A stretch of DNA of 64,000 nucleotides, taken from the NCBI GenBank assembly GCA_041662585.1, contig JBAZSG010000002.1, positions 81,525 through 145,524 on the forward strand. The letters run 5' to 3'. Made by a program: the position numbers and the translations under genes. The notes under the pieces were generated by a model. That model had not been told where the DNA came from, did not search any database, and saw only the letters and a list, made by a program, of their open reading frames with translations. Below are positions 15,422 through 42,092 of the stretch, one piece after another. The first letter of the stretch is position 1; every line of letters begins with the position of its first letter. The DNA comes from Patescibacteria group bacterium (GTDB lineage: Bacteria > Patescibacteriota > Patescibacteriia > UBA1558 > GWA2-36-10).

Positions 15422-15438
15422 TCATTTAATAATTCTAT

Positions 15439-27155: not shown

Positions 27156-28100
27156 CTACTTTGGTAAATCTTGTCTATAAAACTCAGCGGCATCATCTGG
27201 ATCAATCGGATTGATAATCAAGCCCGAGCCAATCTCTACTCCGGCCCACACAGAACCACGAGGCACTACTTTCATATAAAGATGCTGATCATTATCATTT
27301 ATCACCTGATGAAAATAAAAATTATAAGGTAAATCCAATTGTCCAATTTTGCCTAAGATATGTTTCAATATTTTAGCAAAAGAATATCGTTCTGAAGCAG
27401 ACAGCTCAGTGATATTATCACGGTGTTTTAAAGGCATTATCCAGACCTCATAATTAAACATGGAAGCATAAGGAGTAAAAGCAATAACATTTTTGTCTTT
27501 ATATACCAAACGTTTTCCTTTACTCTCTTTACCTATAACGTCACAATAAACACAATGCCCATGTTTTAATTTGTAAGCCTGTTGTCTTTGAGATTTATCA
27601 ACCAGATGTGGTGGTAAAAAATTGGTAGCAAAAATCTGAGAATGAGAGTGTTGTAAACTGGCCCCAGCTGTACCACCATCATTTTTAAATATCAAAATAT
27701 AATCAATCTTATCATCTCTAGATATTTCTTTGGTCCTGATAGCATAAGCTTCCAATAAATCAGCAATATGCTCGGTTGGTAAATCTTCTAATTCTAGTGT
27801 GTGGTCGCCGGTTTCAATTACTACCTCTTGTCTGCCATAGGCTTTTTCATTGTCTAGTGACACGGCTGGATATTTGTTGGCAATTATATTAATGGACCAA
27901 TCTAAACCACTGCCTTTTTTATACAAACTATGTACATCTTTTAAATTACTGGGACAAAATATGCAGGAGCTAACCATCTGTTTATGATGTTCTTTGACTT
28001 TGATTACATCATGAGGTCTTTTACCACGCTTGGGCGCAATAATAACATACTTTTCTTGGATATAATCCTTTCTGAGCTCTGGTTGTTTCATATTAGACAT
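27156..28100 (-). CDS. GalT-family (HIT-like, HxHxQ) hexose-1-phosphate nucleotidyltransferase
   Basis: 314 aa. Zn-ribbon-like CIFCPSN...H and active-site LQHSHSQIF, analogous to the HPHGQ of galactose-1-phosphate uridylyltransferase. Confidence 0.6.
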   Translation of the reverse strand: MSNMKQPELRKDYIQEKYVIIAPKRGKRPHDVIKVKEHHKQMVSSCIFCPSNLKDVHSLYKKGSGLDWSINIIANKYPAVSLDNEKAYGRQEVVIETGDHTLELEDLPTEHIADLLEAYAIRTKEISRDDKIDYILIFKNDGGTAGASLQHSHSQIFATNFLPPHLVDKSQRQQAYKLKHGHCVYCDVIGKESKGKRLVYKDKNVIAFTPYASMFNYEVWIMPLKHRDNITELSASERYSFAKILKHILGKIGQLDLPYNFYFHQVINDNDQHLYMKVVPRGSVWAGVEIGSGLIINPIDPDDAAEFYRQDLPK

Positions 28101-28104
28101 AAAG

Positions 28105-29559
28105 CTATTTCAATTTATTATACAATTTAAGATATTCTTTAGCTGACTTGTCCCAAGAAAAATCTTGTTTCATATCAGTCTTTAACATTTTAGCAAATTT
28201 TGGCTTATTTTTATATAGTCGCAAAGACTGTTCAATGGCACTTATCATTTCCAGTTTTGTATATTTTTTGAATACTATACCTGTCTTATTATGTATTACT
28301 GTATCTTTGAGTCCACCAGTTTGTCTAACTATAGGTATAGTACCATAACGCATCGCTATCATTTGACCTAGTCCACATGGTTCAAATAAAGATGGCATCA
28401 GAAAAAAATCACTACCAGCATATATCTTTTGAGCGAGTGGCAAAGAAAAGTTAATATTAGCAGACACCTTAGTTGGATATTTTTTAACCAAGACTTTAAA
28501 AGCATCTTCAAATTCTGCTTGTCCTGTTCCCAGTACTATAAATTGAAAATTGTCCTTTTTCAGTTTTTCGCTTAAAGCTGGCAAAAGAATATCCAAGCCT
28601 TTTTGACCAACCAAACGGGACACAAGACCAAAAACTGGCACATTTTCTATAGGCAACTTAAGTAATTTTTGTAAATCTTGTTTATTGATAATTTTGGCTG
28701 GTTGCCAATTTTTTACAGAATATTTTTTCTTGATATTCTCATCTTTAGTCGGATCAAATAATTTTAAATCCAGACCATTTACAATACCAAATAAATGTTG
28801 CTTTCTTCTGTTTAAATAAAGCTCTAGTCCTGCTCCATATTCTTTGGTCAATATTTCCTTGGCATAATTGGGACTAACGGTATTGATAAAATCAGCTGAC
28901 AAAATACCTAGCTTCATAGAATTTATCTTGTCACCATCTTTGTCATAATAATCTTCCATTAAAGCTGGCGTCAAATCTTTGTGGAGTCCTGCATAATCTA
29001 AAATGTCCAAGCCAGCTATACCTTGATTGGCCAGATTATGAATAGTATATAAGCTTTTGATATTAAAAAAATTCTTATAGCTTAAACTATACTCATCAAT
29101 AAAAGTCGGCAACATCGCAGTGTGCCAATCATGAGCATGTATAATATCTATGCTCCATTTCAATTCTCGAATTACTTCTACGACAGCCTTAGAAAAAAAT
29201 GTAAATCTAAAAATATCATTTTTATCCTTGGCTTTATTTTTACCCACATAAACCGCTCCGGAAAAAAGACTATGTTTTATTAAAAAAATATCAATATTTG
29301 ATTGTGGTAATTTTGTCTTATATAAATCAAATTTATTTTTTCTACCACTAATTTCTAAACTTATATTCTTTTTAACTAAAGTACCTTTATATTTTTTATT
29401 ATTAATAACCCCATAAAATGGCATAATCATTTTTATGCTTACGCCCAATTTACTCAAAGCCTTTGGTAAAGAACCAGTGACATCTCCAAGACCACCCACT
29501 TTAACCAGAGGAGCTAGTTCGGCTGTAGCCATAAGTACTGATATTTTTTTGTTTGCCAT
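28105..29559 (-). CDS. glgA: glycogen/starch synthase (GT5)
   Basis: 484 aa. N-terminal ELAPLVKVGGLGDV motif (KxGGL), GT-B fold. Confidence 0.85.
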   Translation of the reverse strand: MANKKISVLMATAELAPLVKVGGLGDVTGSLPKALSKLGVSIKMIMPFYGVINNKKYKGTLVKKNISLEISGRKNKFDLYKTKLPQSNIDIFLIKHSLFSGAVYVGKNKAKDKNDIFRFTFFSKAVVEVIRELKWSIDIIHAHDWHTAMLPTFIDEYSLSYKNFFNIKSLYTIHNLANQGIAGLDILDYAGLHKDLTPALMEDYYDKDGDKINSMKLGILSADFINTVSPNYAKEILTKEYGAGLELYLNRRKQHLFGIVNGLDLKLFDPTKDENIKKKYSVKNWQPAKIINKQDLQKLLKLPIENVPVFGLVSRLVGQKGLDILLPALSEKLKKDNFQFIVLGTGQAEFEDAFKVLVKKYPTKVSANINFSLPLAQKIYAGSDFFLMPSLFEPCGLGQMIAMRYGTIPIVRQTGGLKDTVIHNKTGIVFKKYTKLEMISAIEQSLRLYKNKPKFAKMLKTDMKQDFSWDKSAKEYLKLYNKLK

Positions 29560-29573
29560 ATTTATTTTTATTT

Positions 29574-30716
29574 CTAACTATTTAAATGCTTGTAAGCTAC
29601 AATATATAGCGCTGCATTCCAAGACTGTCGACTCATACCATATCCTTTAAAATTTTTACCATCAAAATACTCTCTAAATTGCCAATTACCTTTATGATTT
29701 AACTCAGCTAATCTAGCCAATTCTTCTGTGGCTAATTTTTTATTTGATAAAGACAACAATACAACCCAAAAACCACCTATAAAAGACCAAATAGCGCCAT
29801 TGTGATATTTATATGGTTTATTTATGCCTGAGTGTCTATTCATATATTCTCGCCACAACTTGTCGTTTATTTTGATAGCCTTTAATACAGTTTTTATGGG
29901 CCATGGTTTATTTGCTTTTTTAGAGATAAAATATTTTATAATATTTTTTGTTTTTTTATCATCGGCTAGACCTACTAAACATGCCAAAATATTTCCCAAA
30001 ACATCTACCTCATAACCAGCAAAAGAATAATTTACAAAACTCAAATAACTAGGATTGTTTTTTTCTGCTTTAATAAAAGACTTTAGTATTTTTATCCTAT
30101 GTTCTGTACTTACTGCTTTAGGGTTAAATATATAATTAAAATATTTTTTGGTTAATTTTATATTTTCCAGATTATACAATTTTTTGACCCAATACCATAG
30201 AGCATTACTATATAATACAAAACCTGATCTAGGCATAAGATCAGCCCAATCACTAGCTTCATTTTGTTGAACTAAATAAAATTTGGGATGCTCTTGGCAT
30301 TTTAACCAATTAATAGCCAAATTGATTTGTCTACTAAATTTTTTACTTAGCTTGGCTCCTGTATTTTGATCATAAAATTTTATGGCTATTAGCCACCATA
30401 AAGTAGAATCAATACAACCTAAATAATAAAAATCTGATTGTTTTGTTTTTGGTTTAACCAAAAATGGTATTTGTCCATTTTTACTTTGATGCTTTACTAA
30501 AGTCTCTAAACTGAGACGAGCTGATACTTGTAGAGTTTTGTCTCCACTTAATACCATACCCATAGAACAAATTGAAGCGTCTCGACCAAAAATGCTAAGA
30601 TAATTTCTGTCTTTAGCCTGTTTACTAATTCCACTGGCAAACACTCCAAATTTATTAGAGTTTTCTTTTAATACTTTGATTGACTCTCTATAACAATCTA
30701 CTGTATAATCTTTCAT
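29574..30716 (-). CDS. six-hairpin glycosidase, amylo-alpha-1,6-glucosidase C-domain (GDE_C)/GH63-like
   Basis: 380 aa. FGRDASI, YHNGAIWSF and QSWNAA motifs typical of the (alpha/alpha)6-barrel GDE_C, GH63 and neutral-invertase clan. Confidence 0.45.
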   Translation of the reverse strand: MKDYTVDCYRESIKVLKENSNKFGVFASGISKQAKDRNYLSIFGRDASICSMGMVLSGDKTLQVSARLSLETLVKHQSKNGQIPFLVKPKTKQSDFYYLGCIDSTLWWLIAIKFYDQNTGAKLSKKFSRQINLAINWLKCQEHPKFYLVQQNEASDWADLMPRSGFVLYSNALWYWVKKLYNLENIKLTKKYFNYIFNPKAVSTEHRIKILKSFIKAEKNNPSYLSFVNYSFAGYEVDVLGNILACLVGLADDKKTKNIIKYFISKKANKPWPIKTVLKAIKINDKLWREYMNRHSGINKPYKYHNGAIWSFIGGFWVVLLSLSNKKLATEELARLAELNHKGNWQFREYFDGKNFKGYGMSRQSWNAALYIVAYKHLNS

Positions 30717-30722
30717 AAAATA

Positions 30723-31568
30723 TTATTTACTAATAAAAGCAGCTGCTATTATAGCTGCATTTTTTAATTTTGATACTTTGATTATGGGTAGTTTAAACAA
30801 TGGCTTGTGCTGTAATTCTTTGTTCATCGTCTGGGCAAAAAATTTATAAGCTTTAGCTATTTGACCACCCAAGACTATGATCTCTGGGTCATAAGCCTTA
30901 ACTACACCTATTAAACCAAAACCTAAATATCGGCCAAACTCAGTCCAAACTTGTAAAGCTTTTTTATTGCCTTGACTGGCTAAAATATAAAGATCTTGAC
31001 CATTTTCGGCAGCTAATTTGTATTTTTTAGCTAAACGTTTTAAAGACCTAGATCCAGCATATTCTTCAAAACAGCCTCTATTGCCACAAACACACTTGGG
31101 ACCATTAAAATTCAAAGAAACATGTCCAAATTCAGAAGCCTTACCACGACCATTAAATATTTGTTTATCGTCTACTACTCCACAACCAATACCCGTACCC
31201 AAAGTAATACCCACTACTGTTTTATATTTCTTGCCTTGACCTATCAATGCTTCAGCTAATGTAAATAAATTGGCATCATTTTCTGAGTAAATAGGAAATT
31301 TGTATTTTTTAGAAATAATTTTAGTAATTTCTTCCAAAGTAAGAGGCATATTGGCTGGACTGGGCCAAGCCAAGCATATTCCTAAACAACTAATATTGGC
31401 TTTCAAAAGACTATCCAAAACTAACAAAGTGTTTTGAGCAATTTGTTTTTTACCAAGTTTTACTTGAGCAGGATGAGATACCAGTTTTAAAATCTTACCT
31501 TGTTTAGATACCAATCCAGCAGCAATATTGGTACCACCAACATCAAAACCTATAAACGCTTTGGTCAT
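30723..31568 (-). CDS. ROK-family glucokinase
   Basis: 281 aa. FDVGGTNIAAGLV N-terminus and the CxCGxxGCxE zinc motif (CVCGNRGCFEEY). Confidence 0.7.
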   Translation of the reverse strand: MTKAFIGFDVGGTNIAAGLVSKQGKILKLVSHPAQVKLGKKQIAQNTLLVLDSLLKANISCLGICLAWPSPANMPLTLEEITKIISKKYKFPIYSENDANLFTLAEALIGQGKKYKTVVGITLGTGIGCGVVDDKQIFNGRGKASEFGHVSLNFNGPKCVCGNRGCFEEYAGSRSLKRLAKKYKLAAENGQDLYILASQGNKKALQVWTEFGRYLGFGLIGVVKAYDPEIIVLGGQIAKAYKFFAQTMNKELQHKPLFKLPIIKVSKLKNAAIIAAAFISK

Positions 31569-31574
31569 AAAAAA

Positions 31575-32165
31575 TTATTTTTCTCTTAAAAACTCTAAAA
31601 TTTTGTCTACTAAAGACGGATTTGGTAGTTTGGAAGAATTGATTATCAAATAATCCAATTTACTTTTTTTAATTAGTTCTAAATACAAATGTTGTTGAGC
31701 TATATAATCAATTGGACTTTGAGCGATACGACTATAGTGAGGATAAAGCTCTAGCCTGTCTTTAAGTCTTTTGATTAACAGCTCTTCGTCTTCGTCAAAA
31801 ATAAGTAATATTAGCTTGGTATTTATTTTGAGTAATCTCTGCTCAATAGCATAAAAATCAAAATTTTGGTTATTGTATAATTTTTGATAAACGGCTTCCG
31901 TCAAATGAAATTTTTCTGCCATGACATTGGTGTCGTTTATCTCCTCAAAAAGCTCTAAATATTTATTCAGAGTTATTTCTCCAAATTTAGTACCAAAAAT
32001 CCCAAGGTCACAATTAAACCAATGACAACCATCCATTACTTTGCCACCACTATTATACTTTGCCTCTAAATAATTATATATCTGGCTCATTAAATAGCTT
32101 TTGCCAGATAATTCTGCTCCTTCAAAAATAATATTATGTTTAGGATTCTTCATACTAATTAACAT
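31575..32165 (-). CDS. P-loop NTPase, (deoxy)nucleoside/NMP-kinase-like hypothetical
   Basis: 196 aa. Walker A-like GAELSGKS. Otherwise unassigned. Confidence 0.3.
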   Translation of the reverse strand: MLISMKNPKHNIIFEGAELSGKSYLMSQIYNYLEAKYNSGGKVMDGCHWFNCDLGIFGTKFGEITLNKYLELFEEINDTNVMAEKFHLTEAVYQKLYNNQNFDFYAIEQRLLKINTKLILLIFDEDEELLIKRLKDRLELYPHYSRIAQSPIDYIAQQHLYLELIKKSKLDYLIINSSKLPNPSLVDKILEFLREK

Positions 32166-33222
32166 TAATGGACCTCTTGCTATTTTTGGCTAAATTTAAA
32201 TATTCAATGGCATCTTGTAATAAATCATCAATAGGATTTACTACATCTTTCATATAAAACAAAAACACAGCACTACGCATAGCTGTCCAAGATTGATAGA
32301 TATTTATACGATTGATGTATTCTATATTAATGTCTTCAAGATCCTGTTTGAAATAAATCTCAACAAAATCTTTTTTGTGCTGATTTATCTCTTTTCTAGA
32401 CACAAAATTATGCCCCATAAAATCAAGCTGTTGAATAAAAGTACCAATGTCCATCATTGGATCACCAGTGGCAATATCTGTAAAATCAATCATTTCAATT
32501 TCTCTAGCCTCCAAGTTTTTGATGATAATATTTTCTGGATGAAAATCACCATAAATTAAGGTCCGGCTGATTTTTTTTCTATATTTATTGTCCAAAGTGT
32601 GTAAATCTGTTACTAATTGCTCAATATTTTTGCCCAATTTATTGCTGTTATTATAAAAATCTTTAATAAATTTTTTGGGTGCTGGAACCATAGCCAAAAT
32701 ATCAAAAACCGGCCACTTAAAATCAAGTTGCCCCAGATCTAGACTGTGTAATTTTTTTATCCACCCAGTGATAAGCCTCATAGATTTTTTTAAATCAGCT
32801 GAAATATCTTGAGTAAAAAAACTAAAAAAACTAGCTCCCGGTGAAGAAACATAAAAAAAAGCTTTTTGCCCTGCCAAAAAGAAAAGTGGTTTGGTTACTC
32901 TGTATTTACCAGTATCAAAACCGTGCTTATATAATGTTCTGGTTTTTTGATAAGCTTCTTTTCTTGACCCATCAGAATGAGCTGATACAAAAATATCTAT
33001 ATCTTTGATGCTACCATCTTTGCTGATATATTTTATTTTATATTCTACAACAAATACCGCACTAGTAATACCCAAATGTTTTTTAAATGGAGTTAAGCTT
33101 AAGCTTTTTATTTTTTTAAAATCTTTATAGTGTTTTGGTAAACGCTCGTTTAAAATTTTTATAACAAAATCTTTAATTACCAATTTGGCCATTTGTTGTT
33201 TTGTTTTTTCTGACAATTTCAT
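32155..33222 (-). CDS. APH/choline-kinase-fold phosphotransferase (anomeric sugar 1-kinase-like, NahK/AmgK-like; tentative)
   Basis: 355 aa. Brenner motif YGDFHPENIII and DFTDIATGDPMMDIG (DxxxxN / D-x-D of protein-kinase-like fold). Size matches NahK/AmgK-type sugar anomeric kinases. Confidence 0.45.
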   Translation of the reverse strand: MKLSEKTKQQMAKLVIKDFVIKILNERLPKHYKDFKKIKSLSLTPFKKHLGITSAVFVVEYKIKYISKDGSIKDIDIFVSAHSDGSRKEAYQKTRTLYKHGFDTGKYRVTKPLFFLAGQKAFFYVSSPGASFFSFFTQDISADLKKSMRLITGWIKKLHSLDLGQLDFKWPVFDILAMVPAPKKFIKDFYNNSNKLGKNIEQLVTDLHTLDNKYRKKISRTLIYGDFHPENIIIKNLEAREIEMIDFTDIATGDPMMDIGTFIQQLDFMGHNFVSRKEINQHKKDFVEIYFKQDLEDINIEYINRINIYQSWTAMRSAVFLFYMKDVVNPIDDLLQDAIEYLNLAKNSKRSINVN

Positions 33223-33228
33223 AAATAA

Positions 33229-34383
33229 TTATTTACTATATTTGTTCCAATGACTAAACCAAGTACTTTTCTTAATATCAATATATATTTTTTCTGCTTT
33301 TATTTTTTCTTGCTTATTGGCTAAAGCTAAAGACCTGATAGACTTAATCAACTCTTCTGACCCATTGTCTATCATGTCTGGATTCCAGGTCAATGGAGAA
33401 AAATCTGATGGCTTTCTAGCGCTAGCCCACCAAAAAGTACAAGAAGACAAGGCTCTGTCTAAATGTGTCCTAGCCCAATGCCAATTTTTATCTTGCTTAT
33501 ATTTATCTATTAAACTAATTGCTAAAAAAACCAATCTCCAAAGTAAACTATGTATTTTATTTTTTGGATGACTCCAAAGAGCAAAAGGAATACTATTTTT
33601 TAATTCAGAATCCAAGCTCTCCCAAGACGCTGCTCTTAAATTTATTTTTTGCTCGTTTTTGGAGTTTTTAAGATATTCTGAAACTGTTTGAACTGTTAAA
33701 TTCTTGTTTTGTAATATTTTTTCTAAATGCCCCTGCCAGTCTTTATGAAAGTGTCCATATATTTCACCGTCCGTACCAGTAATTATTGTCTGACTAGGTT
33801 CGTTTTTCTCAATTTTATTAAAAATCACTTCTGGTGGATATGATTTTGAAATAGCTCTGTTTCTAAATACTATCTTTAATTTGGTTTTTTTGTGAATATA
33901 AAAAGTATCTTCATTATATTTTCCGGTGTAAGCTATCGGATCTAAAATAATCCATTCAAATTTCATTTTCCTCACAATATCAGCCACTTGATTTGAATAA
34001 GCCATCTCTGGCATATAAAATCCTTTTATTTTATCTAGTTTAAAATATTGTGCCAAAGTTTCTTGATTTAGGTTTATTTGTCTTGTTATTTCTTTACTAG
34101 GAAGTAGTGGAAGCAAAGCATGATATTTGGAACTAGCGCTAAGCTCTATCTGCCCTTTAGAAACAACTTTTTGTAATCTAGTTAATAAATCTGGACGATA
34201 GTCATTTAATTGTTCAACTAAATTGGCCGTAATATTTAAGCTCGCTTTAAAATTGGGATATTTTTCAAACAAAGTTAATAAATACTCATAGCTCTCACTA
34301 GAAATCTGTTCAATCACACCTTTGTCTTGCCAAGGTGGTTGATAAATATGAATAAAATTTACCCAAGTTATTTTATTTGCCAT
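33229..34383 (-). CDS. glycoside hydrolase family 57 protein
   Basis: 384 aa. VNFIHIYQP (GH57 H-Q-P region), YMPEMAYS (WLPExAY nucleophile region), ITGTDGEIYGHFH (acid/base Asp region). Confidence 0.55.
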   Translation of the reverse strand: MANKITWVNFIHIYQPPWQDKGVIEQISSESYEYLLTLFEKYPNFKASLNITANLVEQLNDYRPDLLTRLQKVVSKGQIELSASSKYHALLPLLPSKEITRQINLNQETLAQYFKLDKIKGFYMPEMAYSNQVADIVRKMKFEWIILDPIAYTGKYNEDTFYIHKKTKLKIVFRNRAISKSYPPEVIFNKIEKNEPSQTIITGTDGEIYGHFHKDWQGHLEKILQNKNLTVQTVSEYLKNSKNEQKINLRAASWESLDSELKNSIPFALWSHPKNKIHSLLWRLVFLAISLIDKYKQDKNWHWARTHLDRALSSCTFWWASARKPSDFSPLTWNPDMIDNGSEELIKSIRSLALANKQEKIKAEKIYIDIKKSTWFSHWNKYSK

Positions 34384-35848
34384 TATCTTTTTTAAATTTT
34401 ATTGCTTTTTTATATAATTCTATATATCTTTGAGCTGGAAGGTCCCAAGAAAATGAAGTCTTCATACCTTCCCTGACCAAACGTTTCCAAGTTGGTCTAT
34501 ATTTATATGTTTCCAGCGCTCTAGTAACAGCGACTAACAATTCTTTGGCATTGTAATGTTTAAAGGTAAAACCGTTTCCATTATTGGTTTCTGGATCAAA
34601 ATTTACTACTGTATCTGACAAACCTCCAATACTACGCACTATTGGTACACAACCATAACGAAAGCTGATTAACTGATTTATACCACATGGCTCAAAACGA
34701 GATGGTAGTAAAAACATATCAGCGCCAGCATAAACAGATGTTTCCATTTTGCGATCAAAAACTACAAAACGCAACTTTTCTGGAAATTTCTTTTGAATTT
34801 TTTTAAGTTTCTTAATATATTCTTTATCACCATCTCCCATGATTATAACCTGTACATCTCTAAGCAATAAAGTTGGTAATATATCTAGTGTCAAATCCAA
34901 GCCTTTTTGTTCGGCGATTCTAGAAGTAAGTCCAATCAAAGGAGTTCTGTCATTTGAAGGTAATTTATAAAACTTTTGTAAGTATCGTTTATTAAGTAAT
35001 TTTCTATGTAATTTGTCTAAAGTATAATTCTGATGTAAACCTCTATCGGTTTTTGGATTATATTTTTTATAATCAATGCCATTCACCACCCCAAATAACT
35101 TGTGTTTACGATTGACTAATATACGATGTAAATCTTGCCCAAAATCCTTTTCCATTATTTCTTCGGCGTAGGTTTCTGATACTGTGTTTATAATATCTGC
35201 TTCCAAAATTCCCCGTTTGGCAAAATTTAGATATTCAATATCTGGATCAGAAAAAGATAGCAAGGCTTTTGTGCCGTTATCTTTTTTCTTAGCTGGTATT
35301 TCCCACCAAGGCCTGCCCATTTGATAAATTAAATTATGAATAGTATATACAGTAGCTGCTTTACTTAAAGTCTCGCTGTTTTTAAAACGAGTTTTTTTGA
35401 GATGAGGTATAAGACCCGTGTGCCAATCATGACAATGTATAATATCGGCATTAAATTTTAATAATGATACCAATTTTAAAGCAGCCACAGAAAACATATA
35501 AAAACGAGCGTTTTCATGATTTGATCCGTAGATACTTTTACGACGAGAAAAATATTTATCATTGTGTACAAAATAAATTGATAAACCAGGCACCATCTCT
35601 GTCCGATAATAAGCTACCTTAACTTCATTATCTTTATCAATATGTAAAGAAACATCACTATATATTTTTTCTAGCTTATGAATATCTGTATTAATAATCT
35701 TTTGATAATATGGTGTGATAATAATCACATCGTGTCCCAACCTAAAAAGAGACTTAGGCAAAGAACGAGCCACGTCTCCTAGACCACCGGTTTTTGAATA
35801 TGGCTCAACCTCTGAAGCGATTGATACAATTTTAAATTTCTTTTTCAT
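34373..35848 (-). CDS. glycogen/starch synthase paralog (GT5/GT4)
   Basis: 491 aa. SEVEPYSKTGGLGDV N-terminal motif, same architecture as the 28105-29559 gene. Confidence 0.8.
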   Translation of the reverse strand: MKKKFKIVSIASEVEPYSKTGGLGDVARSLPKSLFRLGHDVIIITPYYQKIINTDIHKLEKIYSDVSLHIDKDNEVKVAYYRTEMVPGLSIYFVHNDKYFSRRKSIYGSNHENARFYMFSVAALKLVSLLKFNADIIHCHDWHTGLIPHLKKTRFKNSETLSKAATVYTIHNLIYQMGRPWWEIPAKKKDNGTKALLSFSDPDIEYLNFAKRGILEADIINTVSETYAEEIMEKDFGQDLHRILVNRKHKLFGVVNGIDYKKYNPKTDRGLHQNYTLDKLHRKLLNKRYLQKFYKLPSNDRTPLIGLTSRIAEQKGLDLTLDILPTLLLRDVQVIIMGDGDKEYIKKLKKIQKKFPEKLRFVVFDRKMETSVYAGADMFLLPSRFEPCGINQLISFRYGCVPIVRSIGGLSDTVVNFDPETNNGNGFTFKHYNAKELLVAVTRALETYKYRPTWKRLVREGMKTSFSWDLPAQRYIELYKKAIKFKKDNGK

Positions 35849-35856
35849 CTTATTGA

Positions 35857-36351
35857 TTAAGCTAATTCTTTATTAAAAAATGAAGCTGTAATGGCTACTG
35901 CCAAAGCGTCAGCAGCATCATCTGGTTTTGGTACAGCCTTTAGCTTTAAAATAGTTTTAACCATTAGTCCTACTTGTGTTTTATTGGCCTGACCATTGGC
36001 ACAAACTGTTTGCTTGACCTGTAAAGGAGTAAACTCCCATACTTCTTTTTTATTTTGAGCAATAGCTAAAAGAACAACGCCCCTTGCCTGTCCTACATCT
36101 AGAGCTGTTTTTACATTTTTAGCAAAATACAATTTTTCTACAGCTACAATATCTGGATTATATTTTTTGATTAAACTATTTACTTCTTTATATATAATTT
36201 GTAAACGTTTAGAAAAATCTAATTTTTTTGAAGTTTGTATACTACCAGTATTTAAATATCTGATGATACTAGTATTTTTTTCTATAACTCCCCAACCAGT
36301 ATCAGCAAATCCCGGATCAAGGCCCAATATAATTTTGTTTATTTTTGACAT
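35857..36351 (-). CDS. ruvC: crossover junction endodeoxyribonuclease RuvC
   Basis: 164 aa. ILGLDPGFADTGWGVIE... RNase H-like fold with catalytic acidic residues. Confidence 0.85.
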   Translation of the reverse strand: MSKINKIILGLDPGFADTGWGVIEKNTSIIRYLNTGSIQTSKKLDFSKRLQIIYKEVNSLIKKYNPDIVAVEKLYFAKNVKTALDVGQARGVVLLAIAQNKKEVWEFTPLQVKQTVCANGQANKTQVGLMVKTILKLKAVPKPDDAADALAVAITASFFNKELA

Positions 36352-37076
36352 TAAATATCCGTATTAGTATAAATATTGTTTACATCATCGTCATCATCTA
36401 AAGCATCCATAAGTTTTAAAAGTTGTTCTTCTTTACTAATAACTACTTTTTCTTTTGGTCTATATACAATTTCAGATGACTCTATAGCAAAATTGAGTTC
36501 TTGTAATTTATTTTTTACTACCTCCAAATCATCCAAATTGATAATAACTTTTATTTTTTCATCATCATTATCAATGTCTTCGGCTCCAGCTTCAATGATT
36601 TGCAATTCTTCTTCCTCACTTAGACTTGTTTTATTTAAAATAATTTGCCCTTTGGTCTCAAACATCCACTGAACACTGCCATCGGCTCCTAAATTGCCTC
36701 CGTGTTTACTCAAAATGTGTTTAAGGTTGGAAACGCTTCTGTTTTTATTGTCAGTTAAAACCTCAATAATCAAAGCTACTCCACCCGGACCATAAGCTTC
36801 ATAAATATAGCTTTCTATTCTAGCTCCATCATCATCGCCACTGCCCTTTTTAACAGCCCTATCTATGTTATCTTTGGGCATAGAAAAAGCCTTGGCCTTT
36901 TCTATGGCCATTCTTAATTTAAAATTCATATCTGGATCAGCGCCATCACGTGCTGCCACACTGATAATCTTTGATAACTTGGTAAATAAACTACTACGTT
37001 TAGCGTCTTTGCCTTCTTTGGCACGTTTGGTTGTCGCCCATTTACTATGTCCACTCATAATATATATTTTAATCAA
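36351..37076 (-). CDS. yebC: YebC/PmpR family DNA-binding transcriptional regulator
   Basis: 241 aa. MSGHSKWATTKRAK N-terminus. Confidence 0.9.
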   Translation of the reverse strand: MIKIYIMSGHSKWATTKRAKEGKDAKRSSLFTKLSKIISVAARDGADPDMNFKLRMAIEKAKAFSMPKDNIDRAVKKGSGDDDGARIESYIYEAYGPGGVALIIEVLTDNKNRSVSNLKHILSKHGGNLGADGSVQWMFETKGQIILNKTSLSEEEELQIIEAGAEDIDNDDEKIKVIINLDDLEVVKNKLQELNFAIESSEIVYRPKEKVVISKEEQLLKLMDALDDDDDVNNIYTNTDI

Positions 37077-37284: not shown

Positions 37285-38868
37285 ATGTCAAAAATAAAAA
37301 ATCTAATAAAAAAATTTAAGTTAGACTATATTATATTGGCTATAATAATGTCTATTTACTATGGATATATTCAATGGAATAATTTTGTAGGCGATCCAGA
37401 TGGTTTCTATCATGCCAAATTAGCTAAATGGCTAGCTGAGGGCAAATTAATAGAAAGTCTTCCTTGGATGCAATTTTCTAGCCTTAGAAACGATTTTACA
37501 GATCATCATCTACTATACCATCTATTATTAGCCCCTTTTACCATTTTTTTTGATCCAATGATAGGTGTAAAAATAGCCACTGTAATATTTGCTGTAGCTA
37601 TGGTATTAACTTTTTATTGGTTTTTAAAAAGATTCAATATTCCGTGGCCTTTTATTTTTGCTACGTCTTTTTTAATATTAAATGGTTTTAATTTTAGAGC
37701 CTCCTTAATAAAAGCAAATACTTTGTCCGTGTTAATGCTCTATTTAATTGTTTATGCTTTGTTTAAACAAAAATATTGGCTCAGTACCTTACTATCAGCT
37801 ATGTTTATCTGGCTCTATGGTGGTTGGCCTTTAGCAATATTAATTCTTATCACATATCTTATCTCTTATAAAATATATAAAAAATTAAATACTAATAAAT
37901 TAAAAATATTTTTAAACAAAAGTATAGAATTGCTAGGCCCATTTCAAAAAAAATATAAATTATTAAAAACATCTTTATATCTACTTGGTGGTTTAGCCCT
38001 AGGGCTGATAATCAATCCTTACTGGCCAAAAAATTTGTATTTTTATTATCAGCAAGTTTTACAAATTGGTATCATAAACATGAGCAGCCAATTTAATGTT
38101 GGCAATGAATGGTATGGAGCTGATATGAGTCAAATTATTTTTTCTAGTCCTCATCTTTCAGTCATAGCTATAATTGCTATTATGGTTTTATCTTTTAATA
38201 TAAAAAAAATCAGCCATCTTACTTGGTTTGCTTTTTTAATGTCTCTGGGATTTTTTATATTGACTATAAAATCAAAAAGATATATAGAATATTATATGCC
38301 TTTTACTATCTTATTTATAGCTAGCGCTAGTAAAGATATAAAAGAATTTATTGATTGGTCAAAATATTTAAAAACGTGGAAAAACTTGTCCCAACAAATA
38401 CGCATTTGTTTGACAATAACTGCTTTGTTATTTTTGACAATAACCATGCCCTTTGCCTATGATAGCATTCTAAATGTCAGCTTAAGAAATAAATACCCTA
38501 TAGACAAATTTCAAACGGCTAGTTTGTGGCTCAAAGAAAATACTGAAGCAAATTCTATAGTTTTTCATAGTGATTGGGATGAATGGCCAATTCTTTTTTA
38601 TAACAATGATCACAACTATTACATAATTGGTTTAGACCCTACTTTTATGGAAAATTATAATCCACAACTACATAAACTGTATAGAGAGATAACTTATGGC
38701 AACATTCGTTATAATATTTCCAAATATATAAAAAATGATTTTAAAGCTGATTATATCTTTGTGGACCGAGATGGTCATGAAAATTTTATACAAAATCTTA
38801 TCTTAGACAAAGGCGTATCAGAAGTATATCAAGATAATAAAACAATAATATACAAAATTATTCTTTAA
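37285..38868 (+). CDS. polytopic membrane protein, possible GT-C glycosyltransferase (ArnT/PMT-like)
   Basis: 527 aa, more than 10 TM helices. First loop GDPDGFYHAKLAKW resembles the acidic motif of GT-C enzymes. Large C-terminal soluble domain. Confidence 0.3.
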   Translation: MSKIKNLIKKFKLDYIILAIIMSIYYGYIQWNNFVGDPDGFYHAKLAKWLAEGKLIESLPWMQFSSLRNDFTDHHLLYHLLLAPFTIFFDPMIGVKIATVIFAVAMVLTFYWFLKRFNIPWPFIFATSFLILNGFNFRASLIKANTLSVLMLYLIVYALFKQKYWLSTLLSAMFIWLYGGWPLAILILITYLISYKIYKKLNTNKLKIFLNKSIELLGPFQKKYKLLKTSLYLLGGLALGLIINPYWPKNLYFYYQQVLQIGIINMSSQFNVGNEWYGADMSQIIFSSPHLSVIAIIAIMVLSFNIKKISHLTWFAFLMSLGFFILTIKSKRYIEYYMPFTILFIASASKDIKEFIDWSKYLKTWKNLSQQIRICLTITALLFLTITMPFAYDSILNVSLRNKYPIDKFQTASLWLKENTEANSIVFHSDWDEWPILFYNNDHNYYIIGLDPTFMENYNPQLHKLYREITYGNIRYNISKYIKNDFKADYIFVDRDGHENFIQNLILDKGVSEVYQDNKTIIYKIIL

Positions 38869-40780
38869 TATTTATTCTTTCACTGACTTTTTTTAAAATC
38901 AAATCAACTTTAGCATCTCGGATATCACTCAATTTTACCTCTCCCTGCCAAGAAAAAAGCTGATAAGCTTTAATATCGTCAGATAAATAATAATAAAAAT
39001 TTATCAAGTTATCTTCTGACCAATCAAAAACCAACCAAACACCATAATCTAATGGGATATCTATATAATAATCGTCTCCATAAAAACGCAGTAAATAATT
39101 ACTAATATCTGACTGTGTTTTTTGATAACTAATTTCTAATATATTAAGATTATCTTGTTTAAAATATTTGCCTGAAACTACAAAATCATTATTATCAAAG
39201 TCTTGTGGTTTTTCTGATGTGCTATAAATCGACAATTCTTTTTCTGATTTTACCAATGATTTATTTTGCCATAACAATAAATTATTTTTAGCAGCTATAA
39301 GAACATAATCATTGAGTCTATTACGAAAAATATCCGACACTTTTATATTATCAAAGTGTCTATTTTTTACTTGTTCAAAATAAGCTAAAATCTGCAACAT
39401 ATCTTCAGTGTCTATCAATATATAATCTACTTCGGGAAATTTAAAATCGTCTAAATAAAATTGTGTTTTACCCAAATAACTATACTGCAAAGGATAAATA
39501 TTTATCCGATTACTAAGTGCCGGCGCCAGAGAAGCACTGACTACCAAACTAGCCTCTTCTGGTATTTGATCAATAAAATATTGTCTATTTTCTCTTAACT
39601 CAGCTGCATAATGATAGAATAAAACATTTTTTATCGGCGATAAAAATACCGAAAAATAAATTACTGTAAAAACAAATAAACTAATAAATATATTTTTATG
39701 CGTCAAAATAGTTTGGCTAAATATAAACTTTTCTTTATTTACAATTTTATTAATAGCAAAAATAGTGGCTATAAAAAGTCCCGGCAAAAATACCGTCGCA
39801 TAATGCATACTATAAACTGCGCTATTGATGCCTTGTGCTGTCAGGGCAAATTGCATTAATGGAAAAAATAATAACCACAAATAACGAGGCGCCAACAATG
39901 GCAAAAATCCCAAGGCTATAGCCATAATAAAAAGACTAGCAATGTTATGCCCACTTAATAAATGCCCCAAAAATTGTAAAGGATGACTAAGCCAAATCCA
40001 TAATATTGATATCAAGCTGTCTCCTCCCAACCAGCCATAATACAAAAAAAACTTATTGCTATCACCCAAATTAAAAGAGGCAATAATTTGTAAAGCTCCT
40101 AGAAAATACAAAATTCCTAAAATTGGTGTAAATAACCACTTGGCACTTCTTTTATCTAAAAAGGCTAGTATAGAAAAACCAAGTAATATAAAACCGATAT
40201 CCTCCCTGACTAAAAGAGCTAAGACGAAAAATAATAACCATAATTTATAATTATGACTATAATAAAAATAAAATGCCCAAAATATAAAAAATATAGCAAA
40301 AGATAAAAAATGAAACTCAAAAAGATTAGCATTGTGTAATAAGAAATTAATAAACCAGAGAAATATAATACCCAAAGAAATTAATTTATTATTTATGACT
40401 TTTTTCGCTATCTTATAAATTGGCCAAGCACATAAAGCCAAAATTATACTCTGCATAATCAATAATATTTGCGGACTGGGCCATAATTTATATAAAGGTA
40501 ATAACAAAATAATTATTGGCGTAAAATGATCAGCTAAATAATTATTTAAATTAAAAGTCATAGCAAATAAACGCCCATTGCTAGTATTAAAAAATACTTG
40601 ATTAAAAATAGTCAAATCAAAAATATTATAACTAAAATTATAATATTTTTTTAAGCTCAGCCAAGAAAAAAATAAACTATATATAAAAATAGCTAGCCAA
40701 AGTATTTTATAACTATATTGTTTCAGAAATTTCAACATTAAGTTAATTATATCATAAAAAAATGTATTTTTGACAAACAA
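38858..40780 (-). CDS. polytopic membrane protein, hypothetical (DUF-type or GT-C-like)
   Basis: 640 aa, about 12 TM helices in the N-terminal 430 aa, then a soluble C-terminal domain. Convergent with, and overlapping by 11 nt, the 37285 gene. Confidence 0.3.
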   Translation of the reverse strand: MFVKNTFFYDIINLMLKFLKQYSYKILWLAIFIYSLFFSWLSLKKYYNFSYNIFDLTIFNQVFFNTSNGRLFAMTFNLNNYLADHFTPIIILLLPLYKLWPSPQILLIMQSIILALCAWPIYKIAKKVINNKLISLGIIFLWFINFLLHNANLFEFHFLSFAIFFIFWAFYFYYSHNYKLWLLFFVLALLVREDIGFILLGFSILAFLDKRSAKWLFTPILGILYFLGALQIIASFNLGDSNKFFLYYGWLGGDSLISILWIWLSHPLQFLGHLLSGHNIASLFIMAIALGFLPLLAPRYLWLLFFPLMQFALTAQGINSAVYSMHYATVFLPGLFIATIFAINKIVNKEKFIFSQTILTHKNIFISLFVFTVIYFSVFLSPIKNVLFYHYAAELRENRQYFIDQIPEEASLVVSASLAPALSNRINIYPLQYSYLGKTQFYLDDFKFPEVDYILIDTEDMLQILAYFEQVKNRHFDNIKVSDIFRNRLNDYVLIAAKNNLLLWQNKSLVKSEKELSIYSTSEKPQDFDNNDFVVSGKYFKQDNLNILEISYQKTQSDISNYLLRFYGDDYYIDIPLDYGVWLVFDWSEDNLINFYYYLSDDIKAYQLFSWQGEVKLSDIRDAKVDLILKKVSERINIKE

Positions 40781-40829: not shown

Positions 40830-41216
40830 TTATTGTGGTATGGCTACCCCAGTGGCGTTGCCCAAGGCCATCATCACGGTCCTAGTCAAAATATAAGCTA
40901 AGAAGGCAATTGATATACCTATCAAAGCGTTTTTTATACTCGTTTTGGCAGCCAATACTTTCTCTGGATTACCACCTGAAGTCATCCAATTAAATCCGGC
41001 TGATACTAAAAAATAAGTAAAAAACATCATAAAGGCTCCCAAAAAACCATTGATCCATCTACCCACGACCACATAAACATCGGCATCTTCTCCCATAGGG
41101 AAGTTTGCTTCTCTAGCTGCTGTATCAAGTCCAGAATCAATAGGAGCTGCTAAAGTAATGATCGGCAACACAATCAATAATAAAAAAATGCTTAATTTAT
41201 ATTTCGTTAGTTTCAT
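40830..41216 (-). CDS. small secreted two-TM protein, VirB2/TrbC-pilin-like topology (paralog 4)
   Basis: 128 aa. Signal peptide (LLIVLPIITLAAP), TM1, loop AGFNWMTSGGNPEKVLAAK, TM2. Confidence 0.4.
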   Translation of the reverse strand: MKLTKYKLSIFLLLIVLPIITLAAPIDSGLDTAAREANFPMGEDADVYVVVGRWINGFLGAFMMFFTYFLVSAGFNWMTSGGNPEKVLAAKTSIKNALIGISIAFLAYILTRTVMMALGNATGVAIPQ

Positions 41217-41297
41217 TTTTTGTTTTTAAACTCTAGTCTAAGCTCTAGTAGGTCATTGTGATAGATGACCTACTATAGTCTAGACTACATAGGTCAA

Positions 41298-41654
41298 CTA
41301 TGCTGTGGCGGTATAAAGTTCGCTCAATACGAATCTAGATACAGCGTAAGCTGTTAGTACGATTACTAGACCGACAACGCCAGCGCCGATAAGTTTTTTG
41401 GCTTCGTCAACTTTTTCAGTATTACCTTGAGAAGTCATCCATTTGAAACCACCCATCAAAATAATTAAAGTTGTTAAAATTCCTAAAAATCCTAAGATGA
41501 TGTTTACTACACCACCAATAGTTTCTCTTAATGGTCTTGAACCTAAAGCAATGTCAGTGTCTGTAAAATCATTATATCCCCAAGAACCAAGATTTGCTTG
41601 AGCGTTAGCTAGAGCTGGAAATGCTAATAAGGCTAATGTAAGTATTTTTTTCAT
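41298..41654 (-). CDS. small secreted two-TM protein, VirB2/TrbC-pilin-like topology (paralog 3)
   Basis: Start moved to ATG 41654 (MKKILTLALLAFPALANA signal peptide), preceded by strong SD GAAAGGGGGTGA. The provided ORF extends to 41702. Loop GGFKWMTSQGNTEKVDEAKK. Confidence 0.4.
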   Translation of the reverse strand: MKKILTLALLAFPALANAQANLGSWGYNDFTDTDIALGSRPLRETIGGVVNIILGFLGILTTLIILMGGFKWMTSQGNTEKVDEAKKLIGAGVVGLVIVLTAYAVSRFVLSELYTATA

Positions 41655-41741
41655 ATTTTCACCCCCTTTCAAATATAATAGATTAATTAAATTATAGAAC
41701 AAAAATAAGCTTTTTACAATCTGTTATCAACAGATATTTAA

Positions 41742-42077: not shown

Positions 42078-42092
42078 AAAGCTATTGATAAA

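Follow-up and report, generated by a model that had tools for sequence, protein, structure and literature searches.

The eight-gene locus described here, from an uncultured ultra-small bacterium, is best read as the Komeilibacteria-type form of an alpha-glucan operon conserved in Patescibacteria, where it keeps a constant position between ruvC and tyrS. Our leading, though still tentative, reading is that it serves synthesis and remodelling of a glycogen-like alpha-glucan with a saccharide kinase and a phosphatase coupled to its GH57 enzyme, and no description of such a GH57-kinase-phosphatase module was found in the literature searched. The locus lies in the window, by which we mean the whole 64-kb stretch of DNA analysed. 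The original prediction of eight tightly packed co-directional genes was borne out, with all open reading frames on the minus strand between 27156 and 35848 and domains called by Pfam and NCBIfam models. From 5' to 3' they encode a GT5 synthase with a KTGGL motif (GlgA1, 34373-35848, 491 aa), a short GH57 enzyme (33229-34383, 384 aa), an APH-like kinase (32155-33222, 355 aa), a P-loop kinase-like protein (31575-32165, 196 aa, or 192 aa per gene callers), a ROK-family sugar kinase (30723-31568, 281 aa), a GDE_C/GH100-like six-hairpin glycosidase (29574-30716, 380 aa), a second GT5 synthase with a KVGGL motif (GlgA2, 28105-29559, 484 aa) and a GalT-like class I HIT enzyme (27156-28100, 314 aa). 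Successive spacings are an 11-nt overlap, +6, an 11-nt overlap, +6, +6, +14 and +4 nt. A strong, intrinsic-terminator-like hairpin (27126-27096, minus strand; 14-bp stem including 7 GC pairs, with a T-rich tail after it) follows 30 nt 3' of the GalT-like stop codon and closes the predicted transcription unit. At the other end, yebC and ruvC (35857-37076, minus strand) abut the cluster, with ruvC ending 8 nt 5' of GlgA1; the pair marks the cluster's conserved place in the genome and could share its transcript.

The arrangement recurs in ~70 species-level Patescibacteria genomes, with APH identity down to 25-30%, and is therefore no chance juxtaposition. YebC-RuvC stands 5' of GlgA1 in nearly all related loci. 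Since gene-order conservation also runs past the cluster (PBP1A, TyrRS), part of the linkage reflects general synteny. GlgA1 is invariantly the first gene and was present in 34/34 complete loci, compared to 31 for the GalT-like gene, 24 for GH57, 23 for GlgA2 and 16 for the P-loop protein; the APH kinase is present in 34/34 by construction, and its ubiquity looks inflated because the search for related loci was seeded on this protein. Genes inserted into the locus are carbohydrate-related throughout. Mid-locus in other Parcubacteria these include 23 GT4 ORFs, 6 polysaccharide pyruvyl transferases, 10 RimK-type ATP-grasp ORFs, 4 choline-kinase-like APH2 genes, one GT2 and one methyltransferase, so that in those genomes the locus may yield a decorated polysaccharide, possibly a surface one, instead of storage glucan. 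A DUF2079 membrane protein adjoins the locus and lies within it in L014.

The expectation of two clearly diverged KxGGL GlgA paralogs was confirmed, both being intact GT5 proteins with 37% mutual identity. GlgA1 and GlgA2 score 492.5 and 504.6 bits against TIGR02095 (cut-off 328); GlgA1 matches PF08323 at 4e-65, and its PDB relatives are starch synthases IV and I and the E. coli and Agrobacterium glycogen synthases. Residues K15, G17, G18, H161, N246, R300, K305, E377, C379 and G380 (E. coli numbering) are conserved across 61 GlgA1 orthologues, with K15 replaced by R in one. All catalytic residues of GlgA2 are likewise preserved across 44 orthologues, 41 of which have F where the E. coli enzyme has the adenine-stacking Y355. 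Identity is 0.51-0.56 within the synthase lineages versus 0.36 between them, identifying GlgA2 by sequence as a separate conserved paralogue lineage.

The GH57 assignment also stood (PF03065, 1e-28), though the branching role considered for it did not. The top PDB match is the Thermococcus litoralis 4-alpha-glucanotransferase 1K1W (2.5e-12, residues 4-252), whose E123 and D214 align with E126 and D205, both invariant in 52 orthologues. The spacing between nucleophile and acid/base is 79 aa, as against 171 aa in the T. kodakarensis branching enzyme TkGBE, and branching-enzyme models cover just a 70-aa stretch. The missing branching insertion, the partial model match and the closest structure all argue against a branching enzyme; judged by its residues and alignments, the protein is a catalytically intact, non-branching GH57 of the 4-alpha-glucanotransferase/amylase type.

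The APH protein appears to be an active APH-fold small-molecule kinase, and its close relatives all come from uncultured Patescibacteria-type MAGs (Parcubacteria, Komeilibacteria). Several features of its gene neighbourhood were informative. First, where a preceding gene is visible, it is GH57 in 51/65 loci and GlgA1 in the other 14. Second, GH57 is fused to APH in proteins of 735, 753 and 1088 aa (P0343, P0352 and L086 carry such fusions), the 1088-aa form occurring in two Pyrinomonadaceae. Third, the kinase keeps company with phosphatases: PHP phosphatase genes lie within 10 clusters, an APH::PHP fusion of 640 aa exists (P0463), and the minimal cluster, in L096, reads RuvC-GlgA-GH57::APH-PHP. 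In Pyrinomonadaceae (Acidobacteria) a CX5R dual-specificity phosphatase (DSP), of a fold unrelated to PHP, lies near the kinase; it has a signal peptide, and an MsbA-like ABC exporter adjoins. Lastly, several kinase paralogues may share a cluster, as in a Myxococcota genome with the order GlgA-GH57-APHx3-ABC exporter. Gene fusions thus link the kinase with a GH57 glucan enzyme and a phosphatase rather than with the supply of sugar nucleotides.

The GalT-like protein hits the models of both GalT domains and retains the CxxC...H zinc ligands and HSHSQ, although the zinc site is lost in 13/50 Patescibacteria orthologues; 1192 homologues were found at E<=1e-10. Its place in the GalT family, as originally predicted, was upheld by alignment, which put it nearer the single characterised ADP-glucose phosphorylase, Arabidopsis At5g18200 (161 bits, 33-36% identity) than E. 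coli GalT (66 bits, 22%), and PDB matches rank in the same order (1Z84, 4e-46; P. aerophilum GalT, 2e-32; E. coli GalT, 3.5e-17). The At-type C-terminal motif GVEIGSG..IN is present and the GalT motif KFMVGYEMLAETQRD absent, so that on its motifs it is a class I GalT-family HIT nucleotidyltransferase of the At5g18200 type.

Among the remaining genes, the P-loop protein has a dTMP-kinase/deoxynucleoside-kinase fold with the Walker A motif GAELSGKS; it scores below dTMP kinase models and has EKF in place of DRY. The ROK call proved sound (PF00480, 2e-49; DVGGT motif and CVCGNRGC zinc motif), and the protein is probably a gluco- or fructokinase; it scores 121.8 bits against TIGR00744, below the cut-off of 260. 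For the GDE_C glycosidase the six-hairpin (alpha/alpha)6 fold was right, and as a family label GH100 alkaline/neutral invertase fits slightly better (48.6 vs 38.6 bits; PF12899, 6e-13; PF06202, 8e-10), the cyanobacterial alkaline invertase 5GOO is matched at 1e-9, and FREY aligns with the invertase FPEY motif. Neither belongs to the core pathway, where both had been placed: ROK occurs in 7/34 complete loci (missing from L004, L006, L010 and L012) and the glycosidase in 3/34, and they are lineage-specific insertions.

The claim that no glgC or classical GH13 enzyme lies nearby holds locally. GlgC, GlgP, GlgX, GlgB (C-terminal half), GalK, GalE and GalM were not found in the 64-kb window by tblastn with E. 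coli queries, nor were glgC, glgB, glgP, glgX, galK or galE within 10 kb of the cluster in ~70 related species; "GlgC-less" is a statement about the window and these flanks. A galU-like gene does lie outside the cluster, 8.2 kb away rather than the 9 kb first given (44093-44956, minus strand; PF00483, 1e-27; TIGR01099, 275.6 bits, cut-off 326.8). This gene for a GalU-like UTP-glucose-1-phosphate uridylyltransferase is syntenic in L008, L031 and L036 and is a likely source of UDP-glucose. Wzx- and Wzy-like genes lie near it. The sole window match to E. coli GlgC, over the N-terminal domain at 28% identity, is a short sugar-1-phosphate nucleotidyltransferase of archaeal GlmU-N/AglF-like type (61504-62223, minus strand, 239 aa), which matches TIGR03992 (199.7 bits) and NF041313 (147 bits) below their cut-offs and is another possible NDP-glucose source.

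We tentatively propose that GlgA1 and GlgA2 would polymerise alpha-1,4-glucan from NDP-glucose, with UDP-glucose supplied through the galU-like gene, or UDP-/ADP-glucose through the second nucleotidyltransferase, as donor, and that GH57 would cleave or disproportionate the chains. The APH kinase may then phosphorylate a saccharide made or held by GH57, whether maltose, a malto-oligosaccharide, a primer or the polymer itself, with the P-loop protein as a putative second, helper kinase. The saccharide phosphate would be transient, because in relatives the kinase is either fused to a PHP (or DSP) phosphatase or has one next to it. Rather than replace GlgC, the GalT-like enzyme could use phosphorolysis or hexose-1-phosphate exchange to bring NDP-glucose and glucose-1-phosphate into equilibrium, and so connect the NDP-sugar pool to glycolysis. 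The ROK kinase and the GH100/GDE_C-like glycosidase would be a lineage add-on releasing and then phosphorylating hexose.

Of the original prediction, the alpha-glucan cluster with two GT5 synthases therefore stands, while the route from an anomeric kinase through the GalT-like enzyme to NDP-glucose is not supported. In that GlgC bypass, which we consider unlikely, the APH protein would be an anomeric glucose or maltose 1-kinase and the GalT-like enzyme would make NDP-glucose for the synthases (glucose-1-P + ADP -> ADP-glucose + Pi, or exchange with UDP-glucose). The local absence of GlgC in the window and ~70 relatives is consistent with it, as are the similarity of the GalT-like protein to ADP-glucose phosphorylase, its translational coupling to GlgA2 (4-nt gap; directly 3' of GlgA2 in 37 loci), the ADP-glucose type of the synthases, with an aromatic residue at the adenine-stacking position, the bifidobacterial precedent of NahK, an APH-fold anomeric kinase, with GalT2, and the fact that both substrates, glucose-1-P and ADP, would come from the kinase. 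However, the kinase is coupled to GH57 and phosphatases and not to the GalT-like gene, a phosphatase partner is hardly sensible for a glucose-1-P producer, some kinase-bearing clusters have no GalT-like gene (L096, L050, L055, L076), and in Pyrinomonadaceae a genuine GlgC adjoins the GH57::APH module, which is therefore no GlgC substitute there. The galU-like gene and the second nucleotidyltransferase are also at hand. Moreover, the equilibrium of the plant ADP-glucose phosphorylase reportedly lies toward phosphorolysis (McCoy et al. 2006; Keq about 5-40), which would make net ADP-glucose synthesis thermodynamically unattractive and leave ADP-glucose sub-micromolar at equilibrium.

It is similarly improbable that the locus performs reversible glucan phosphorylation, with the APH kinase (and the P-loop protein as second kinase) esterifying glucan hydroxyls and PHP or DSP removing the phosphate; if true, this would mean control of solubility, branching or degradation, as by GWD/PWD and SEX4/laforin. 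The fusion of the kinase to a glucan-active enzyme, the multiple kinase paralogues per cluster and the independence of the association from the origin of NDP-glucose fit this reading, as does the pairing with two unrelated phosphatase folds, PHP in Patescibacteria and CX5R DSP in Pyrinomonadaceae; every glucan phosphatase known so far is a DSP. Which enzyme phosphorylates glycogen is also an acknowledged gap (PMC13011383). Against it, no carbohydrate-binding module was detected, characterised APH-fold kinases are mostly small-molecule enzymes, and the acidobacterial signal peptide and exporter point to export of a small product in those bacteria. The PHP proteins, furthermore, resemble nucleotide phosphatases: their nearest NCBIfam model is a nucleotide 3'-phosphatase/RNase (115 bits, far under cut-off), which would indicate a nucleotide rather than a saccharide substrate and so counts against our leading reading as well.

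We regard as very unlikely that the GT5 enzymes start an alpha-glucan-based glycopolymer, for which the kinase and GalT-like enzyme supply an activated decorating group (X -> X-phosphate -> NDP-X, in the manner of LicA/LicC) and of which the window lineage keeps a reduced form. The mid-locus decorating genes of other Parcubacteria, the DUF2079 protein and the Wzx-/Wzy-like genes speak for this, but the decorating genes are absent from the window's own locus, the operon has no flippase or exporter, GT5 and GH57 enzymes work on alpha-glucan in the cytoplasm and the glucan-synthase residues are all conserved here, and ROK and the glycosidase fit hexose metabolism. Highly improbable, too, is a merely syntenic collection of sugar-metabolism genes in which the GalT-like protein is a Leloir uridylyltransferase, the APH protein a galactokinase substitute or synthase-regulating protein kinase and the P-loop protein the cell's thymidylate kinase: the synteny beyond the cluster, the source annotations (galT and thymidylate kinase), a TIGR00209 galT_1 score slightly under cut-off (99.2 vs 102.1 bits) and weak APH matches to the SrkA/YihE protein kinase model would agree, but GH57, APH and PHP are linked by three independent fusion types, the module recurs in Myxococcota and Acidobacteria outside Patescibacteria synteny, the canonical GalT sugar-binding motif and nearby galK/galE are missing, the P-loop protein falls short of the dTMP kinase models, and the inserted genes are all carbohydrate-related.

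Compared with known systems, the locus synthases share the full set of catalytic residues with E. coli GlgA, and alpha-1,4-glucan is the expected product as in the GlgC-GlgA-GlgB pathway of glgBXCAP. Unlike that operon, the locus has no GlgC, GH13 GlgB, GlgX or GlgP within the ranges given above, and it combines two paralogous synthases with a short GH57 where that operon has GH13, and adds two kinases and a HIT enzyme. The mycobacterial Rv3032 is not known to be a GT5 enzyme. A GH57 is paired with a GlgA-like glucosyltransferase both here and in the MGLP cluster Rv3031-Rv3032, where a loop-less "GBE-like" GH57 and an alpha-1,4-glucosyltransferase stand outside classical glycogen synthesis (PMC9291813); MGLP differs in its methyl- and acyltransferases and in lacking both an APH kinase and a GalT-like enzyme, and the locus GH57 is much shorter, without the DUF1957 region. 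At5g18200 (EC 2.7.7.36; PDB 1Z84/2H39), the best match of known structure to the GalT-like protein, shares its zinc ligands, HSHSQ and the AGAS..HSHSQ and GxEIGxG..IN motifs, although the plant enzyme is not known from a glucan operon and the activity here is predicted. With GWD/PWD and SEX4/LSF2/laforin the locus has in common kinases and phosphatases attached to alpha-glucan machinery, including a CX5R DSP in the acidobacterial version; the analogy is functional only, since an APH fold stands against PEP-utilising dikinases and no CBM is present. In the bifidobacterial GNB/LNB operon, the APH-fold sugar 1-kinase NahK similarly works with the GalT-family GalT2. No GlgE-type maltosyltransferase was found near the locus, and the APH kinase has no sequence-level similarity to Mak. 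Although the partner of the kinase is GH57 rather than GH13 and the accompanying phosphatase has no counterpart in the GlgE alpha-glucan route, the GH57::APH fusion may by analogy parallel the trehalose synthase-maltokinase fusion TreS::Pep2.

Eight open reading frames on the minus strand, running from 35848 to 27156 and spaced by 4-14 nt or overlapping, make up the tightly packed alpha-glucan cluster described in the original prediction, and both the ORF coordinates and the Pfam and NCBIfam calls confirmed it. In order of transcription, the domains are a GT5 synthase (GlgA1), a GH57 enzyme, a weak APH match, a P-loop protein, a ROK protein, a six-hairpin glycosidase, a second GT5 synthase (GlgA2) and a class I GalT-family HIT protein (GalT-like). 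yebC and ruvC precede the cluster, with a gap of 8 nt after ruvC, and a strong hairpin terminator (27126-27096) closes it after the GalT-like gene. GC content in the window is low (about 30-37%), and a promoter scan gave no signal (55 sites against 55.4 expected).

The conservation of the cluster was followed through about 70 Patescibacteria loci, which were collected by exact-protein look-ups and by a species-representative scan seeded with the kinase alignment, and mapped by tblastn. The genes are ordered YebC-RuvC-GlgA1-[GH57]-APH-[P-loop]-[variable]-[GlgA2]-[GalT-like], then TyrRS on the opposite strand and PBP1A, so that synteny extends past the cluster in this kinase-seeded survey, and the order persists even at 25-30% kinase identity. 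GlgA1 was present in all 34 complete loci, as was the APH kinase, the latter by construction as the search seed; GalT-like was found in 31 of the 34, GH57 in 24, GlgA2 in 23, the P-loop gene in 16, ROK in 7, a PHP phosphoesterase in 5 and the GH100/GDE_C glycosidase in 3. Judged by sequence, the core is a conserved module of GT5, GH57 and APH kinase, to which a phosphatase, a P-loop kinase and a HIT enzyme of the type of At5g18200, the Arabidopsis ADP-glucose phosphorylase, may be added. Given their presence in only 7 and 3 loci, ROK and the glycosidase are lineage insertions, characteristic of the Komeilibacteria-like group to which the window belongs.

The ROK protein carries the marks of its family (PF00480, 169 bits; DxGGT and CxCGxxGC present) and scores 121.8 against a cut-off of 260.35 for TIGR00744. 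The glycosidase had been called GDE_C; it does have the six-hairpin architecture and a GDE_C match above cut-off (38.6 bits, residues 41-369), but GH100, the invertase family, scores higher (48.6 bits, residues 175-376, also above cut-off), and its solved relatives are alkaline invertases only (1e-9). The protein called P-loop kinase-like has the P-loop, with the description now adjusted to a nucleotide-kinase fold. It is unlikely to be a housekeeping thymidylate kinase, since it scores under the TIGR00041/PF02223 dTMP-kinase cut-offs, has altered motifs, DRY among them, and occurs in fewer than half of the complete loci.

The two GlgA paralogs are indeed diverged, with 37% identity to each other, and sequence comparison indicates that both are very probably active alpha-1,4-glucan synthases. 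Both are GT5 proteins that score above the cut-off of 328.45 for TIGR02095, the ADP-glucose-type GlgA model (GlgA1, 492.5 bits; GlgA2, 504.6 bits), and match PF08323 at 4e-65 and 9e-67, respectively; among solved structures, they are closest to starch synthases of plants and glycogen synthases of bacteria. When they and about 100 orthologues were aligned to E. coli GlgA, the KxGGL loop and H161, N246, R300, K305 and E377 (E. coli numbering) were kept in 61 GlgA1 and 44 GlgA2 sequences, those of the window included. K15, G17, G18, C379 and G380 were likewise retained in both paralogue lineages, the sole exception being K15R in one GlgA1 orthologue. Where E. coli has Y355, the adenine-stacking residue, GlgA2 has F in 41 of 44 sequences, and GlgA1 has F (37), S (21) or W (3). 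The aromatic residue in most synthases is no more than suggestive of ADP-glucose as the donor.

The GH57 protein is, by its sequence, a genuine family-57 enzyme but no canonical branching enzyme. PF03065 matched at 100.8 bits (cut-off 21.2), and the nucleophile E126 in CSR3 and the acid/base D205 in CSR4, the aligned counterparts of E123 and D214 in the 4-alpha-glucanotransferase of T. litoralis, were invariant among 52 GH57 orthologues. That enzyme is also the closest solved relative (2.5e-12, residues 4-252). The branching role suggested in one reading of the original prediction did not hold. True GH57 branching enzymes have three domains, at least 418 aa and a DUF1957 C-domain, and are defined by two elements that lie between CSR III and CSR IV, a flexible loop and the beta5-beta6 strands (PMC9291813). 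The protein here has 384 aa, in which Pfam found no DUF1957 C-domain, and the branching models NF041133 and NF041566 reached 41 bits where their cut-offs are 1000 and 920, over residues 54-131 only, about 70 residues. Its catalytic Glu and Asp are 79 aa apart, compared with 171 in the T. kodakarensis branching enzyme and 91 in the T. litoralis 4-alpha-glucanotransferase, a distance too short to accommodate the loop and the two strands; architecture and spacing together rule out a canonical branching enzyme. Branching elements are missing in 92% of the putative GH57 'branching enzymes' analysed, which act in 'yet to be identified' pathways (PMC9291813), and the kinase-linked module offers a concrete candidate pathway for such loop-less enzymes.

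The kinase that follows, a 355-aa protein (32155-33222, minus strand), has the ATP-binding Lys, the HGDxHxxN catalytic loop, the metal-binding Asp and the fold of APH kinases, and showed no clear affinity to the anomeric sugar 1-kinases NahK, AmgK and maltokinase over other kinases of this fold. The putative substrate pocket contains the invariant residues Y290, R305, W312 and R316. Without exception, the kinase gene is the one immediately behind that for GH57 (51 loci) or GlgA1 (14 loci). Among 1.8 billion representatives, a profile search recovered GH57::APH fusions of 735 and 753 aa, one of them within a minimal cluster RuvC-GlgA-GH57::APH-PHP, together with a 640-aa APH::PHP fusion. PHP phosphoesterase genes were found inside ten clusters, and the nearest NCBIfam model for their products is a nucleotide 3'-phosphatase. 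The module is also found in two other phyla. A Myxococcota contig carries GlgA-GH57-APH-APH-APH-ABC exporter after a two-component system (L085, 6250-14859), and two Pyrinomonadaceae contigs (L086, 7817-18274; L087, 7439-17818) encode GH57::APH proteins of 1088 and 1081 aa followed by a 342-aa APH and a double-APH protein of ~685 aa. The Pyrinomonadaceae contigs further carry an MsbA-like ABC exporter, a CX5R DSP phosphatase with a signal peptide and a genuine GlgC, with a sigma-54 response regulator upstream. Outside Patescibacteria, the module may yield an exported product.

As read from these sequences, across dozens of Patescibacteria species and two further phyla, fusion and gene order tie the kinase to GH57 and phosphatases. 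The fusions speak for a kinase substrate that GH57 produces or binds, and for removal of the phosphate at a later stage; that the substrate is a saccharide is our leading reading, held at slightly less than even odds. One APH::PHP protein stands alone (L097, 8001-9923), with no GlgA or GH57 within 8 kb and a GalT-like gene 7 kb off on the other strand, a layout indicating that the kinase-phosphatase unit can exist apart from glucan genes. Weak APH matches from Poribacteria, Meiothermus and Bacillota (L090-L093) shared the kinase motif only, had no glucan genes nearby and were treated as unrelated proteins.

The GalT-like protein is the most conserved of the cluster, with at least 64% identity among its 120 best matches and 1192 homologues at E<=1e-10. 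Its HSHSQ, CIFC and H101 align to the ligands of At5g18200, as expected of a class I GalT/HIT protein, and HxHxQ is present in 50 of 50 aligned sequences, with the Cys-Cys-His-His zinc ligands in 37. In the other 13 (L058, L062 and L084 among them), all parts of the structural zinc site CxxC...H have been lost together (C->S, C->H/S/T, H->P), and HxHxQ is invariant. The alignment placed the protein nearer to ADP-glucose phosphorylase than to UDP-hexose transferases: bit scores were 160.8 to At5g18200, 116 to P. aerophilum GalT and 66-67 to E. coli or human GalT, identity was 33-36% to At5g18200 versus 22% to E. coli GalT, and subfamily motifs of the At5g18200 type were shared.

As the last gene of the operon, translationally coupled to GlgA2, GalT-like is most naturally read as acting at the NDP-glucose/glucose-1-phosphate node. 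The plant homologue is described as phosphorolytic, with a Km of 7 uM for ADP-glucose (PMC4136846). Its equilibrium reportedly favours phosphorolysis 5- to 40-fold (McCoy et al. 2006); net ADP-glucose synthesis at cellular phosphate would then yield sub-micromolar donor. The enzyme is no less likely to drain or exchange NDP-glucose than to make it, and a two-enzyme 'phosphorylase' composed of a reversed synthase and the GalT-like enzyme is conceivable. One reading in the original prediction had the kinase feeding the GalT-like enzyme, the two making NDP-glucose in place of GlgC. Such a bypass is possible, but it is not the best reading and we consider it improbable: the kinase is tied to GH57 and phosphatases, and the acidobacterial module lies beside a genuine GlgC, which argues that GlgC replacement is not the module's purpose. 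A Leloir galactose-1-phosphate uridylyltransferase was rejected, as scores fall under both equivalog cut-offs (TIGR00209, 99.2 against 102.1; NF008724, 121.5 against 448), the sugar-binding motif KFxVGYEMLxxxQRD is absent and replaced by WAGVEIGSGLIINP, and tblastn found no galK, galE or galM in the window or in about 70 loci.

The cluster had also been described as lacking GlgC and any GH13 branching or debranching enzyme, which stands for the window and for 10 kb around the loci of its relatives. By tblastn, none of GlgC, GlgP, GlgX, GlgB, GalK and GalE was found in the window or within 10 kb in the Patescibacteria loci, and the two GH13 enzymes used as queries (GlgX and a C-terminal half of GlgB, both from E. 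coli) had no match in the window or in 93 loci (+-10 kb). A galU-like gene 8.2 kb from the cluster and a second, short sugar-1-phosphate nucleotidyltransferase in the window mean that an ordinary source of UDP-glucose, and perhaps of other NDP-glucoses, exists. The sole window match of E. coli GlgC (N-terminal domain, 28% identity) was this second enzyme, a 239-aa archaeal-type nucleotidyltransferase (AglF/GlmU-N-like, 61504-62223) adjoining murE and a FemX-like gene.

Several other features of the surroundings were observed. First, DUF6498, Wzy_C (O-antigen-ligase-like) and Wzx-type flippase genes directly upstream of the galU-like gene (44996-48295) form a surface-polysaccharide assembly set near the UDP-glucose source. 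Second, a membrane-bound H+-translocating pyrophosphatase (10674-12713; PF03030, 898 bits) is relevant to how a fermentative cell with a reduced genome meets the energy cost of making NDP-sugars. Third, in the stretches 40830-42725, 42706-44085, 38858-40780 and 37285-38868, four small T4SS-pilin/TrbC-like genes form an array next to genes for a solute-binding protein (SBP_bac_1), a membrane protein (DUF2079) and a polytopic membrane protein of 527 aa without family match. Many relatives keep this arrangement in synteny with the glucan locus, and a DUF2079 paralogue lies inside the cluster of L014. Fourth, in Kuenenbacteria, Buchananbacteria and other Parcubacteria (L058, L062, L068, L071, L073, L075, L079, L059, L061, L074, L076) the variable middle of the cluster holds GT4s, polysaccharide pyruvyl transferase, paired RimK-type ATP-grasp ligases, a choline-kinase-like second APH, GT2 and methyltransferase, which replace or join GlgA2 and the P-loop gene; their families suggest polysaccharide decoration and a decorated glycopolymer. 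Lastly, the window contains a TruB with an N-terminal cytidylyl/adenylyltransferase-like domain (20689-21792, residues 5-95), a fusion kept in L004 and L012; a 618-aa GT1-class I methyltransferase fusion (3390-5246); a 226-aa HTH_25 and Glucodextran_B-like protein (49442-50122); and a fifth tRNA (15438-15511, minus strand) called by Rfam (44.8 bits) and not by ARAGORN, adjoining a tRNA-Gly/tRNA-Leu pair.

The cluster is an alpha-glucan metabolism locus, more interesting than a 'GlgC-less glycogen cluster' and for a different reason than proposed. We tentatively suggest, with considerable doubt, that the GT5-GH57-APH(-phosphatase) module of Patescibacteria, Acidobacteria and Myxococcota could be an undescribed phosphate-dependent branch of alpha-glucan metabolism, in which the kinase would be the first ATP-dependent one to act on alpha-glucan chains or malto-oligosaccharides held by GH57, and the HIT enzyme would provide a phosphorolytic link between NDP-glucose and glucose-1-phosphate in cells presumed to lack GlgC. 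Alpha-glucan metabolism is regarded as well mapped, and the module is a candidate additional step that corrects the reading of carbon storage in reduced genomes; 'galT', 'thymidylate kinase' and 'aminoglycoside phosphotransferase' are unsafe names for its genes. Within the literature searched, work on glycogen genes of Patescibacteria/CPR, on fusions of GH57 with kinases and on glucan phosphorylation in bacteria gave no description of the cluster, and a full-text search no paper on a GH57-linked kinase. The enzyme that phosphorylates glycogen has been stated to be unknown (PMC13011383), a question on which the kinase would bear if it acts on glucan.

Among known systems, a review in Chem Rev (2024) on the alpha-glucan enzymes of prokaryotes, in the parts of its text available to us, lists GlgC/GlgA, GlgE/maltokinase and related routes, and ADP-glucose phosphorylase was not found in those parts. 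In one possible version of the proposed branch, the kinase would make a sugar-phosphate donor or primer for GH57, an analogue of the maltokinase-GlgE route, although no GlgE-type enzyme was found nearby with the two GH13 queries named above. The TreS::maltokinase fusions of the GlgE pathway resemble the GH57::APH fusion in function only. In the other possible version, phosphate would be added to and removed from the glucan chain itself, as by GWD/PWD and SEX4/laforin, of which this would be the bacterial equivalent; glucan phosphorylation in plants and animals, like the pathways of transiently phosphorylated glycosides, resembles the module in logic only.
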